Below, piece after piece: positions 16,861 to 61,675 of a stretch of 64,000 bases of DNA. A program made the translations under genes and the position numbers. Where the stretch lies: positions 14,818,001 through 14,882,000 of the forward strand of contig OX597832.1 in the NCBI GenBank assembly GCA_951406725.2, read 5' to 3'. This DNA is from Octopus vulgaris. Its lineage: Eukaryota. The notes below the pieces were generated by a model. The model was not told the DNA's origin. It searched no databases and saw only the letters and a program-made list of their open reading frames with translations. Positions within the stretch are counted from its first letter, which is position 1. Each line of letters starts with the position of its first letter.

Positions 16861-17500
16861 TAGTTATTTAGTTAGTTAATTTGGCTCAAAAGCAAATAGC
16901 AAGGGCATGTAGGGGGACATGGAGTTAAGTACAGGGTGGTGTTCATGTAAAGAGTTCAGGCCACTTGAGGTCCAAGGAGGCTTTGAACAAAGCGGTCGTC
17001 GGCATCTTCACCATATCGTCTGGCAGCTTGTTCCACGGATCCGCAACCCGGACGGAGAAAGCTCCTCTCCTTCGATTGAGATGAAATCGTCGCAGGTAGA
17101 GCTTTTCGGAATGACCCCGCAGCCGACGCTCTGGAGCAGGAGTGAAGAACAGCTCTTTCGAGAGGTTACACTTTCCGCTTATGATGTTGTGGGCGAGAAT
17201 GAGATCACCACGGCGGCGGCGTTTTTCAAGAGAATAAAGGTCGAGCGTCCTCAGCCTTTCTTCGTAGGACACATTTTTGAGACCATGAACCGTGCGGGTA
17301 GCCAGCTTCTGGACTCTTTCGAGATGCTGTATGTCTTTGAGAAGAGGCTTGAATCCCATACTCCAATATGGGTCTCACCAGCGTGACACAGAGTGGTAGG
17401 AATATGGCTGCTGTGAGCATTCCGAATGACCGTCGAATCAAGAACAGGATTCCGCGTGCTTTGTTGATAGCATGGACGCACTGGGCCGAAGGCGAAAAGG
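16861..17500 (-). mobile_element. 5'-truncated CR1-clade LINE (ORF2 C-terminus, 3' UTR, tail)
   Basis: LVRPILEY, LERVQKLATR, YEERLRTLDLYSLEKRRRRGDLI, RGH, FSVRVADPWNKLP and FKASLD are CR1 ORF2 motifs. There is a frameshift near 17345, a 3' stem-loop CATGT-CCCCCT-ACATG at 16906-16921 and a (TAAC)n-like tail. Confidence 0.93.
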
Positions 17501-20155
17501 AGGAATATATTCGAACTCATTGTGAAGAGAACTGCAAGGATATGTTTTAAGGAATGAAACGTCGCGAGTAAATGTTTAAAGGTATAAGGAGTTTCCGTAA
17601 TGTTTATCAATATTCTGCCTTGATTGACAATGCTGTCTTCTCATTGCATCAACGTATACAGTTTTTCGTTAGATATAAATGTTTATAACAACCATAACTA
17701 TTATGATGCTGAAAAGTGATTCACTATCATTTAGTATACCTAAATTGCACAATTATCTGAAGAATACAGTCTGGCTCTTATTTTCTTTACTTGCCATCAC
17801 GTCAAAACGACGAAAGAAATATAGCTTCCATACTATTTATTTTTCTTTTTTCTGTTATTCCTGACCTGTGTGTGACTAAAGAAAAGAAGAAACATGCATA
17901 TTCTATTTACTCCCGAACACGTTATTACAATCATCATTATCAATCACCACCTCCTCATCCATATCATCATCTCTATATGTGTATGTGTGAATTAAATTTC
18001 TCCCTTCTGTTCGCTTTTTCGTCTTGTATTCATTGATTTCATGATAAAATGTAGGAATGTACAAATACTATTAAGTGTGAGCGTATGTGTGTAAGTGTTT
18101 GTGTATGTGTGTGTTCATACATTTAACGTTTGTACGGATGTGGGCATTTGGATAAAATAAACAAAAGGAATGATATTCAAAGCAATCAATATTGTGCATA
18201 AGGTGTTATTTATATTTTATGAATCATTTATCAATAAACGGACTTATTTAATTACAAATAACGTCACATAAATAAACTATAAATTACATCCTTCTACAAC
18301 ACCTTATATAAGTAGTATGAGTTTGTTACATGCAGACACATACACACGTGCGCATATGTGTGTATATAAGATTGTGTGTAAGTGTGTGTGTACGTATGTT
18401 CCCTATGTATTCCAAAACTGAGATGTCGATTTTGACGTATGAGGTATCAGAAGATTCAGTACTATTTCGGCTACCAATTAAAACATATTTGCATTATCAA
18501 AATTTAAAATTGCAATATTGTCCATCAGTCAAATGTCATGAACAGTATATATGACAAGGACGTCGATGACGTCACACTTTCTATATGAGTGTGAATCTTA
18601 AAGACAGCCATTATTACAACACACACTTTCACTCACTCACTCTATCTCTCTCTTTCTCATTCTCCCGCTCTCTTCTCTCTCTCTCTCTCTCTCTCTCGCA
18701 CACACACATCGATTTTATGGTCTCGTGCATACATCTTTCGCTTTCTCATCTCCTTCACTTTCTGTTCTTTCTCCCCTTTTCGTTTTCTCTTGTCTTTCAA
18801 TTCATGGTCTCTTCAAAGCATAAATAAATATTTTTTTACGGAATGACCGAGGAAAGTTCAGGATGAGATAAGAGAAAGAAACACAGACAGAAAATAAGTT
18901 TATATAGTAGATGAAAGACACATAGCGGGTGAGAGACAGGCATTGATGTTTCATAAACTATGTTTGTTCTACAATTGGAAGTGAAAAAAAAAAAGAAAAC
19001 ACAAATTTGATACTGCATATACCTTATAGGTGAAGATGAACGAAGGCCCGCATAAAGAGAGTAGGGAGGTGGGGAGCAAGGGGACTCTGAGATCCACAGA
19101 AACGAGGTCGTGTCGTACAATTTTCAGGTCGTTTTCAGGTCACTTCCATTTTCGTCCAATGTTTAACGCATGCGTATAATTAGGCATTATCTTTCTGTTT
19201 CAATTTCTTATAATGTACGGAGAATCTATCCTCTCAACAACTCAGAACTTCCACTAATTAATTGGAATTAAGAATTGCATGCAAATGTAAATTCAATTGG
19301 CAACCACATGCGCGCGATCTCACGCACGTACAGAGACAGACAGAAGGGATTTAAAGTTCTGTATAAATTATGTTAATTCTTGCTGTGCGCTAAATTGCAT
19401 ATCAAATCATATGCAATGGTACAAGATTGATTGACTCACTACAATGATAAATCATGCTCTAGAATCAACCATTATTGTTAGCTGCCATCGGGAAGAGATA
19501 ATATAGATTCCACACATGTCCCTTTCAAATGTGTCATTTCAATTCAAGCGCCTCCGGTTCCCAGTGCGATTGCGCTTCGTTATGAGAATCAACATAAATC
19601 AGGGCCAAACGTTAAAAATTGTGAGTCTCAATTTTAAAATACCCTACTTTTCTCATTGACAATTATATGTCGCATGCTTTCGAGTTAGCAGTGAAGATTA
19701 CTTCTATATTTCTGTTACCAACACTGGACGTACGACGCAAAACATAGTTTACCCAGATGCATTGTTGGATTCGCTTAACATATGTTGAAGTGTGTAGTCT
19801 GCCAACATTTTATAGAGATGGTTCTTTTCAAAATGAAGCAGTATTCCTTCCATATAGCTTAATTCTGCGCTACGAATACTCCCATATTCTCAGTCGTTAT
19901 CTAATTCCTTACATCCGTACGTCTTGCTCATTTTGGGGGCAATGTTAGGATTTCACTCTAATCTAAGCTGCTACACTACATGTTTTCTGTCTCGACAATT
20001 CTGGCAGTCTTTCCCGCAAAATGGCTGAAAAACTTCTTAATAAAGAAGAGTTGTTTCCTTCAATCTCCTTGTGCACCGATTCTACCCATAAGAAAGACGG
20101 AAATAAGACAATGTGGATGTAGGTCTTAACCCCAGGTAACATCGGGATTCATCGC

Positions 20156-30999: not shown

Positions 31000-31476
31000 T
31001 TATTTTGCAAACCCACGTCATTCCGTATTCATCTCCACCACCGCTCTCTTCAGCTACATCCTACAATCAGATCAGATTCGAAGTCCCAGTGTTTGAGGCC
31101 AAGACGTACTTGCACAGACAAAGGGTATTATTAGAAATATGCAAATATTTTAGTGCGCCTTTATGTAAAACGCGGTTGTAGTGAATCAGGCTTACAGGTA
31201 ATCGCGAATGATACATAGCAGTAATTAGTAGTGTTAATCACTTTGACGGCTAATTTCAAAAGTGGGAAAAAAGCTTATGACCGAATTCCTTTAGTGATTA
31301 ATTGGCACCGGATTTTTGCTGGCATTTCAAAATTGTTGTATGAGAGTTACCAACAAATTTCAGAGAAATATTCTCATTTCCGACGCATATTTCCTCTTCG
31401 GCCGATTGCAGCCTTCAGGCGTAATAGAAATGCTAGAATATTACTGAGCAATACCTCTAAAACAAACTCCATCTGA
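31000..31476 (+). mobile_element. Penelope-like element relic: RT thumb and linker
   Basis: FCKPT..HLHHRS, KSQCLRPRRTCTD, KRG, RIPLVINWH and IFPLRPIAAFRRNRN match PLE RT C-terminal motifs (KPT, SQ.LRLRRIC, RGY, RIPLV.TYH, P..A.RR..N). Confidence 0.8.
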
Positions 31477-31643: not shown

Positions 31644-31956
31644 CATTTAAAATGAAATTTAGACTGAAATACGATCGATCTTTTCCAGCATCTTTACGTT
31701 TAACAATGAAGAGGAGAGAAAGACATTCGGTAACGATTAGAGGCAAGGTTTTTCCGCTGTTTCAGTTTTCACTCTGGGAGTTCAAGAAGGATCGAGTGTT
31801 CATTTAAAATGACAATTAGACAGAAATACGATCGATCATTTCTACCTTTCTACATTTAAGAATGAAGAACAGGGAAAGATATTTAGTAATGAATAGAGCG
31901 AACGTCTTTCAGATGTTTACGTTTTCATTCTGGGAGTTCTAGAACGATCGAGTGTT
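31644..31956. repeat. Diverged tandem duplication, two units of about 157 bp
   Basis: Units 31644-31800 and 31801-31956 both run catttaaaatga...gaaatacgatcgatc...ctgggagttc...gatcgagtgtt. Confidence 0.9.
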
Positions 31957-39396: not shown

Positions 39397-39430
<34 letters not shown>

Positions 39431-39602
39431 GTAAACAATGTCAAATGCGATACAATAAAATTAATTATTATCGCTGGTGTTCTAGGACACGCCATATATT
39501 ATTCATATATAAGTACATTAAAAGGCGAAGTGTGTACTAGATACACAAAAGCTGGATAAATTTAATGAGATGAAAATTAAAAACTTTTACAAACTTAGTT
39601 CT

Positions 39603-39675
39603 TCTTAGACTGCAGTTTCGCCTATTTCAGCAATAAAAATAATATTTATTTACTCAGGTAGGCTCTTCAGTAAGA
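39603..39675 (-). ncRNA. Minimal type I hammerhead ribozyme motif
   Basis: Minus strand: UCUUA-CUGAAGA-GCCUA-(34 nt)-UAGGC-GAAAC-UGCA-GUC-UAAGA. All core nucleotides are present, stem I and stem II are each 5 bp, and the minimal stem III has a palindromic loop. Confidence 0.8.
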
Positions 39676-39837
39676 TTCCTGTTATTATGGGAAGCGCACA
39701 TTAATAGAGGCACATGCGTCTATTAAATTGCTCTTTCTAAACTATTCAAATCACTGCGCAGACTCAGAACGTACCCGACAAAATAGGGTTTTCTGGTATA
39801 TCGTCTAACGCTCAAAAATTTATCGAGAAAATACGTA

Positions 39838-39874
<37 letters not shown>

Positions 39875-60428: not shown

Positions 60429-61675
60429 CGAGGGACGTTCAATAAGTAATGCCTCTGACCCACTTGCAGAAATTTTGTATGTGCATTCATTTATATCTCT
60501 ATAGAGTAAGTGGCAAATTACAGCTCTGAATTAGTTGTGGTTTCTGATTTACATGTGTTCGAACCGAGTCTAGTGTGAAATGGAGCCTGTTGAGTGTCGA
60601 GCAGTGATCCGGTTTTTGTATTTGAAAGGACGCACACCACGGGAGACTTTTGATGAAATGCAAGTAACTTATGGTGATGATGCCCCATCATATGACCTTG
60701 TAAAACGCTGGCATCGTGAATTCAAACATGGTCGGAACTCTGTGGAAACAGCTCCCAGATCTGGTCGCCCCCTTCTGCCACTGATAAGGCATCTGTCCGT
60801 CAAGTTGAGGCTGCCATTTTGGAAGATCGACGCATAATTATTCGCCAAATAGCTCATGAGGTCAAGATTAGTAACGGGTCTGTGGAAACTATCATTCATG
60901 ACCATTTGCATATGCAAAATGTGTCTGCCAGATGGATTCCCATGTTGCTCACGCCTTTCCAGAAGCAAGAACGCGTCGAATGCTCGAGGGTGAATTTGGA
61001 GATGTGCCAAGAAGATGAGTCAAATTTTTTCAAAAGACTCATTACACAGGATGAAACCTGGGTCCATCACGATGGTCCAGAGACCAAAGCCCAGTCAATG
61101 CAGTGGAAGCACCGTGACTCACCCCCTCCAAAGAAGGCAAGGGTGCAGCCCTCCGCTGGCAAGGTCATGCTCACAGTCTTCTGGGACCAGGACGGAGTAG
61201 TGATGACAGATTTCCTGACAAAGGATACCACAATTGCAGGAGCCTATTATGCTTCACTTTTGAGGAAATTAAGAGAAGTTATCAAAATCAAGAGGCGGGG
61301 CAAGATCAGCAAAGGCATCCTCCTCCTGCAGGACAACGCTCCGGTCCACAACTCGTATGGCTATGAACTCCTCCCCATACCCCTACTTTCCTGACCTTTC
61401 ACCCTCTGATTTTCACCTCTTCCCAATCATGAAGTTGTTTTTGAAAGGAAAGCGATTCCCAGATGATGCAGCCTTGATTTCTGAAGCCACGTTGAGGTTG
61501 GAGGACCAAGCTGGGTTCCTCTACAAAAACGGTCTCCAGAGCCGCATCAAACGATGGGAGAAATGCGTAACGCTGGGTGGTTCCTATGTAGAAAAAGACT
61601 AATAACTGTGCCAAGTTTCGTTGCTCTACTGCTATGGGAAGTGGGTCAGAGGCATTACTTATTGAACGTCCCTCG
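60429..61675 (+). mobile_element. Mariner DNA transposon (irritans-like), near full length
   Basis: Perfect 37-bp TIRs (60429-60465 and 61639-61675) and TA duplications at 60427-60428 and 61676-61677. Confidence 0.97.
60580..61602 (+). pseudogene. Mariner transposase pseudogene (two frameshifts, small deletion)
   Basis: Split over three ORFs: HTH..RSGRP; ARWIPMLLT, ITQDETWVH, LQDNAPVH; PYFPDLSPSDFHLF..RWEKCV..GSYVEK. The spacing between the second and third Asp is shorter than 34. Confidence 0.93.

Follow-up and report, generated by a model that had tools for sequence, protein, structure and literature searches.

Octopus DNA raises the question of what a hammerhead ribozyme motif is doing in a stretch of 64,000 nucleotides of Octopus vulgaris (the window), where it lies between two (TA)n tracts: is the motif genuine, and does it belong to the host or to a mobile element? 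A sequence-only reading of the window had described a solo minimal hammerhead with an intact catalytic core and an unusually long 34-nt loop, and had offered two origins, a non-autonomous ribozyme-bearing retroelement family or a self-cleaving site retained in a host transcript. As checks it had suggested an Infernal or RNAmotif search, a genome search with positions 39430-39840 and a comparison of homologous copies. The stem and core letters, the coordinates, the predicted cut between 39608 and 39607 and the flanking (TA)n tracts proved to be exactly as that reading gave them (Table 1).

Table 1. Positions in the window of the hammerhead motif, the insertion that carries it and the neighbouring Penelope-like element (PLE) relic.
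Feature	Position	Strand	Basis
Retrozyme insertion, 404-nt unit plus 7-nt terminal redundancy, subfamily A	39430..39840	(-)	copies 97-100%; tandem period 404
Fixed 3' end of insertion, putative internal RT start; its 7 nt recur at 39834-39840, where the copy begins	39430..39436	(-)	126/129 loci
5' redundancy; copying would have ended just beyond one full unit	39834..39840	(-)	
(TA)16 target tract, 3' end of insertion	39398..39429	strand-neutral	TA-rich 3' flank in 117/129 loci
(TA)15 target tract, 5' end of insertion	39841..39871	strand-neutral	TA-rich 5' flank in 83/129 loci
Type I hammerhead ribozyme motif, predicted cut 39608/39607	39603..39675	(-)	descriptor and Rfam
Stem I	39675-39671 / 39607-39603	(-)	letters read
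Conserved flanks of stem I, which may lengthen stem I beyond an internal loop	39592..39686	(-)	by eye
Catalytic core, first half, CUGAAGA	39664..39670	(-)	letters read; copies compared
Stem II, proximal helix, 5 bp	39663-39659 / 39624-39620	(-)	letters read
34-nt insert in stem II	39658-39625	(-)	letters read
Extended stem II: 5-bp proximal helix, internal loop, distal hairpin	39620..39663	(-)	pair probabilities, covariation
Distal hairpin of extended stem II	39654-39650 with 39633-39629	(-)	pair probabilities
GAAA, 2-bp stem III with palindromic tetraloop, GUC triplet (GAAAC-UGCA-GUC)	39608..39619	(-)	folding
Decayed PLE RT-thumb fragment (relic)	31225-31473	(+)	relatives 50-69%

The hammerhead motif is real. 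It has the CUGANGA...GAAA...UH core and stems I, II and III of a type I hammerhead, open at stem I, and a type I descriptor found it as the single site in the 64-kb window. In 200 local dinucleotide shuffles the same descriptor gave a mean of 0.01 matches with 4-bp stems and none (0/200) with 5-bp stems. When the 411-base island that contains the motif was compared with Rfam, model RF00163 (Hammerhead_1) aligned over its whole length (positions 1-45) with 30.6 bits and an E value of 9e-6. A 32-nt insertion in stem II keeps this score under the gathering threshold of 34; in that insertion the octopus motif differs from a model that it resembles in core and stems I-III. A scan of the whole window against Rfam gave microsatellite noise alone, with RF00163 absent, among the 150 of 171 matches listed. 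The intact core was thus borne out by both of the searches suggested for it. The word minimal was misplaced: the min-HHR of PLEs is defined as having neither helix III nor loop 3 (PMC4209133, in excerpt), whereas this motif has a 2-bp helix III closed by a 4-nt palindromic loop. In the same excerpts a helix III of 1-2 bp with a palindromic loop is the canonical metazoan type I arrangement, and by that analogy the octopus motif is expected to cut as a dimer.

The 34-nt length of the stem II insert was called correctly, but its description as a loop was not, as the insert folds as an internal loop plus a hairpin rather than as an open loop. Calculated pair probabilities were 0.93-0.97 for the stem II helix and 0.95-0.97 for the first three pairs of the distal hairpin. 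A kink-turn reading of the internal loop was rejected by eye, and covariation backs the plain register. The 8-nt stem III palindrome is predicted to form a self-duplex of -11.1 kcal/mol, the probability of stem III in the folded monomer circle was 0.00, and the modelling predicts that the palindrome pairs with a second copy. Dimer cleavage of PLE hammerheads was reportedly described in a 2017 paper. In the folding calculations the active fold came out ~8 kcal/mol less stable than the local minimum, and the probability of stem I in the circle was at most 0.03, which tells against activity. The unit circle folded weakly better than its shuffles (z -1.65), with a z of -1.76 for the local fold.

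Of 774 candidates in the 2.8-Gb genome, which carries long (TA)n tracts, 40 were scored against the 411-bp island and gave 67 matches, the top 30 being 97-100% identical. Neighbouring matches overlapped by 7 nt and hence the unit is 404 nt, the window copy being one unit plus a 7-nt redundancy. Exact-pattern searches located 97 places for the 3' end of subfamily A, 116 for the A/B ribozyme and 101 for subfamily C; reversed-pattern controls gave 0 matches. With all subfamilies included, the 3' half of the ribozyme occurs at 351 places, and the term solo therefore holds for the window locus, which is a monomer, but not for the genome. We read about 170 loci, about half of the at least 351 sites. 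They form a family of at least four subfamilies with non-coding units of 396-404 nt: A (404 nt, ~98% identity to the window), B (399-401 nt, 88-90%), C (396-399 nt, 78-83%) and D (87-88%). Over its whole length the window copy is 97-99.5% identical to dispersed copies. Upon tblastn with two PLE proteins, PLE coding similarity in the loci fetched was found outside the units only. Among individual loci, L002 is 99.5% identical to the window copy and has an extra partial unit that stops 2 nt past the predicted cut and is followed by (TA)n. The subfamily C loci are L164, L186-L205 and L227-L240, and L240 is an array of at least 16 near-identical 396-nt pieces.

The insertions have a distinctive footprint. 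In a set of 129 A/B loci, which includes one chance match, two mis-chained loci and two near-duplicate pairs, the 3' end fell at unit positions 407-411 in 126, the flanks were TA-rich on the 3' side in 117 and on the 5' side in 83, and the 5' ends were scattered by variable truncation. Single pieces made up 78 of these insertions, two pieces 46, three pieces 4 and five pieces 1, and all 51 with more than one piece were arranged head to tail. The C and D loci had the same ends, with arrays of up to 7 and at least 16 pieces. These hundreds of dispersed copies with a fixed 3' end and head-to-tail units uphold the proposal of a non-autonomous ribozyme-bearing retroelement family, and the suggested genome search returned the high copy number, tandem units and stem covariation that had been sought.

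A distance of 178 nt separates the predicted cut from the element 3' end downstream of it. In a set of 75 loci, mostly picked by the 3' motif with 26 picked as full-length matches, 47 insertions were longer than 178 nt and 28 were longer than one unit, and there was no pile-up of 5' ends near the predicted cut (2 versus 3.5 expected). Given lengths that run past 178 nt and no pile-up of 5' ends at the cut, RT would pass the cut site, and its template would be either a circle or an uncut multimer. An excess of exactly unit-length copies (6 versus 1.7 expected) was discounted, as the set is enriched for full-length matches. Pieces within an insertion were more alike than pieces of different insertions. 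With five loci and overlaps of <40 nt dropped, divergence in subfamily A was 0.65% within versus 2.76% between insertions (lower in 17/17 pairs), and in subfamily B 1.59% versus 4.54% (lower in 28 of 31 pairs, opposite in 3). This likeness fits one template read repeatedly, and would also fit homogeneous source arrays or later duplication. Microhomology at the 40 TA-abutting 5' junctions of the 75 averaged 2.35 nt, versus 1.03 nt expected. Inverted arms were seen at 2 of 167 retrozyme loci, one of them clear, and a twin-primed two-armed mode of insertion was rejected for this family on that count.

The suggested comparison of homologous copies also came out in favour of a ribozyme, since both core and stem pairing are kept. 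The core was intact in 92 of 102 complete A/B copies. Within the ribozyme, 1 of 73 positions separates the majority sequences of A and B, versus 37 of 316 positions outside. As the B loci were selected via the 3' half of the ribozyme, we counted separately the 51 positions of the 5' part not fixed by the search pattern and found 0 differences. We count this conservation in favour of selection acting on the RNA. MAFFT misregisters stem II between subfamilies, and hence pairs were counted through motif anchoring. Between the A/B motifs (98) and the C motifs (32), three stem II pairs change from C-G, C-G and U-A to U-A, U-A and C-G. A hairpin pair changes from U-G (95/98 in A/B) to C-G (29/32 in C) and is also found as U-A, and the outer stem I pair changes from A-U (26/98) to C-G (29/32). 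As judged from these copies the stem II extension is conserved, with compensatory changes that stem from few independent events. In subfamily C 27 of 32 copies have a CCGAUGA core, and the first stem II pair is mismatched (A-C or A-A) in 31. As subfamily C spread to at least 101 places despite this core and mismatch, fast cleavage may not be needed.

The features that can be tested in sequence place the octopus repeat among the metazoan non-LTR retrozymes: a short non-coding unit, head-to-tail repeats, a hammerhead in each unit, and dispersed copies on many contigs with fixed 3' and variable 5' ends; cleavage and circles are predicted only. In excerpts of PMC7229834 and 10.64898/2026.07.22.740005, such retrozymes likewise have a non-coding unit of ~400 nt (350-390 in mussel) with one type I hammerhead per unit; they too occur as monomers, dimers and multimers alongside PLEs, and copying from circles by a PLE RT was proposed there. 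The octopus family differs from those described in these excerpts in its stem II, extended by an internal loop and hairpin, and in features read copy by copy: targeting is strictly to (TA)n, the 3' end is internal and fixed, and the 5' ends are truncated. In Xenopus 21 matches, part of the families there, show pLTR homology, whereas the octopus unit showed no similarity to the three PLE families sampled. Of the Xenopus retrozyme dimers, 8 of 9 did not cleave (10.64898/2026.07.22.740005, in excerpt). EN+ PLEs of the Neptune/Nematis and Hydra clades share the (TA)n target, 5' truncation, partial tandems and internal RT start (PMC4209133, PMC8557442 and PMC11167929, all in excerpt), and in the same excerpts PLE hammerheads share the palindromic stem III that predicts dimer cleavage. 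Unlike the PLEs of these excerpts, the octopus unit is without an ORF, its ribozyme is not a min-HHR and it has almost no inverted arms. The ribozyme listed for Hydra-1_Obim differs by eye in sequence from that of the octopus family. No cephalopod retrozyme was described in the literature searched, as judged by titles and abstract openings.

A PLE could supply the RT and endonuclease that the non-coding unit lacks. The PLE relic ~8 kb from the motif that the sequence-only reading had mentioned does exist. It belongs to an old, abundant and decayed family in which a Cys linker precedes the GIY-YIG domain, and was rejected as the source: its best relatives are at 50-69%, and similarity to the unit was found in 0 of 27 loci. 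Two young PLE families, encountered in the flanks of retrozyme loci, are candidates. In one, of Neptune type, all 150 of the 150 matches listed were 100% identical, open frames are long, 23 of 25 loci have a single fixed end on (TA)n, and the 150 matches listed included 0 inverted and 3 tandem pairs; the Neptune/Nematis-type label comes from its Cys linker, read by eye against excerpts of PMC8557442. Its loci (L271-L295) have a ~1-kb 3' UTR with a small hammerhead-like motif near the fixed (TA)n end. The other, Hydra-like family (L031:2000-4000 and L241-L270) has matches 99% identical and ORFs of up to 717 aa. Its 3' end, long or short, meets (TA)n at either of two points, and the 150 matches listed included 30 inverted (head-to-head) pairs. 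Arms too short to include the endonuclease domain escape these PLE pair counts. One PLE protein of this genome resembles Hydra-1_Obim by eye. The unit shared sequence with the two young families in 0 of 53 loci (blastn, E 0.01), and hence was without similarity to any of the three PLE families sampled (27 + 53 loci). As the unit and the young PLEs have no sequence in common, it is the footprint only that assigns a partner. Among the families sampled the footprint would favour the Neptune type, which like the retrozyme has one fixed (TA)n end and almost no inverted pairs; we put a young Neptune/Nematis-type PLE as the partner at about evens, the alternative being the Hydra-like family.

Several neighbouring elements were also noted. 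Retrozyme fragments beside Hydra-like ORFs (L031, L068) were considered as co-insertions and rejected, being separate insertions in shared (TA)n. L068:3650-3900 holds a short inverted element with a hammerhead-like core, the (TA)n end of which resembles the retrozyme 3' end by a few letters. In the window, a 156-bp unit is present in two copies of 80% identity at 31644-31956, and inspection of the ORF list by eye suggested Mariner-like transposase fragments and the C-terminal part of a LINE RT at 60574-61602 (+) and 16943-17516 (-).

The explanation that we prefer, at a probability of about 0.85, assigns the motif to a single young copy, one unit in length, of a dispersed 396-404-nt non-LTR retrozyme, which the RT/endonuclease of a PLE likely mobilises in trans. 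Loci with at least two units would be transcribed, and two hammerheads would pair via the stem III palindrome and excise a unit-length RNA that is probably ligated to a circle. The PLE endonuclease would then nick (TA)n and RT would start inside the RNA at a fixed point, 178 nt further downstream than the cut site, cross the cut/ligation site, at times for several turns, and stop at random, the 5' end being joined through 1-3 nt of TA microhomology. In excerpts of PMC11167929 a PLE RT starts internally and cuts AT-rich DNA. The window copy has one ribozyme only, and hence could not alone release unit-length RNA and is likely a dead end. That the template is a circle rather than an uncut multimer seems to us somewhat the better bet. 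Alternatively, with the same PLE mobilisation, the template could be read-through RNA from a tandem array that stays uncut (or RT could jump between templates); no circle would be needed, and the ribozyme fold would serve chiefly for RT binding or as a protein-assisted element. As a variant of the preferred explanation, this reading overlaps with it in confidence, and we consider it rather unlikely. It would suit the lack of a 5'-end excess at the cut site, the source arrays of 7 to at least 16 pieces and the variant core of subfamily C, as well as the in vitro findings that PLE hammerhead mutants still insert and that the main substrate is unprocessed RNA (PMC11167929, in excerpt). However, 5' truncation during copying of a linear template could make copies only shorter, whereas every subfamily still has multi-unit insertions. 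Moreover, core, GUH triplet and palindrome are preserved, and related repeats of mussel, coral and axolotl yield abundant circles (PMC7229834, in excerpt).

Two further readings dispense with the retrozyme. The copies might be 5'-truncated 3' ends (pLTR/UTR) of an autonomous PLE yet to be found, given that PLEs, too, have a fixed 3' end, are truncated at the 5' side and form partial tandems (PMC8557442, in excerpt) and that hammerhead-like motifs occur at PLE ends in this genome. Nevertheless, when a copy exceeds one unit it runs into the previous unit and not into an ORF (about half of the at least 351 sites), similarity to PLE proteins lies outside the units in the loci fetched, and complete reading of two loci showed the PLE there to be an insertion of its own, lying behind (TA)n. 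The loci fetched had no repeat flanking an RT plus GIY-YIG ORF, and we hold this reading to be very improbable. Still less probable is a ribozyme retained by the host to process a host transcript at the window locus. Host-exapted hammerheads of the amniote intronic or UTR type occupy a single conserved locus and have a stable monomer fold, neither of which was found here. The core is indeed intact, and one contig from a spliced run of a related organism joins a family ribozyme to a host exon elsewhere. The window copy, however, is a young insertion near-identical along its length to dispersed copies, which tells against the retained host site of the sequence-only reading. In addition, its locus lies between microsatellites and stem III, as modelled, would be too weak for monomer cleavage.

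The family is also represented in sequencing runs. A search gave 10 rows with at least half of the query words under four organism labels, as contigs without joints or ends; none of the runs listed is recorded as RNA. Four runs gave spliced contigs on a host exon and hence are likely RNA. Low-depth contigs covered the unit in two spliced runs and one 371-nt contig crossed the unit junction, although tandem transcripts or genomic tandems would give the same as circles. In run X18 a contig of 820 nt and depth 91, identical in these values in both retrievals and thus taken as one record, has the ribozyme 3' half at 1-52 (5 differences) and a host exon at 58-203, the splice falling ~10 nt past the predicted cut site. 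The host coding exon, the acceptor of which is joined to the ribozyme 3' half, lies at L143:1499-1645 (G000:C11, about 74.2477 Mb). Its peptide recalls a Bak/Bax-like protein, by eye only, and had no Pfam or PDB match. The region from 360 kb upstream of the exon to 40 kb downstream, which has one gap of 100 N, contained no family sequence, and the one match of a pattern search for a genomic source of the join was rejected as chance. The join may be an insertion private to the related organism, an assembly chimera or an exapted exon. It is a long shot that a family ribozyme copy has come to serve a well-expressed host mRNA of the related organism as its upstream exon. If true, a dimer-gated hammerhead would remove the cap only when paired in trans with retrozyme RNA, a parasite-triggered switch on a host gene.

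The retrozyme class and its link to PLEs are already in print, and the octopus repeat is a new family within that known class. As a young family of at least four subfamilies it provides natural variants of a hammerhead with an extended stem II, including the spreading CCGAUGA variant. Its one-armed, fixed-end footprint points to a testable partner, the young Neptune-type PLE, and to a testable RT start point, which bears on the still unproven step from circle to genome.
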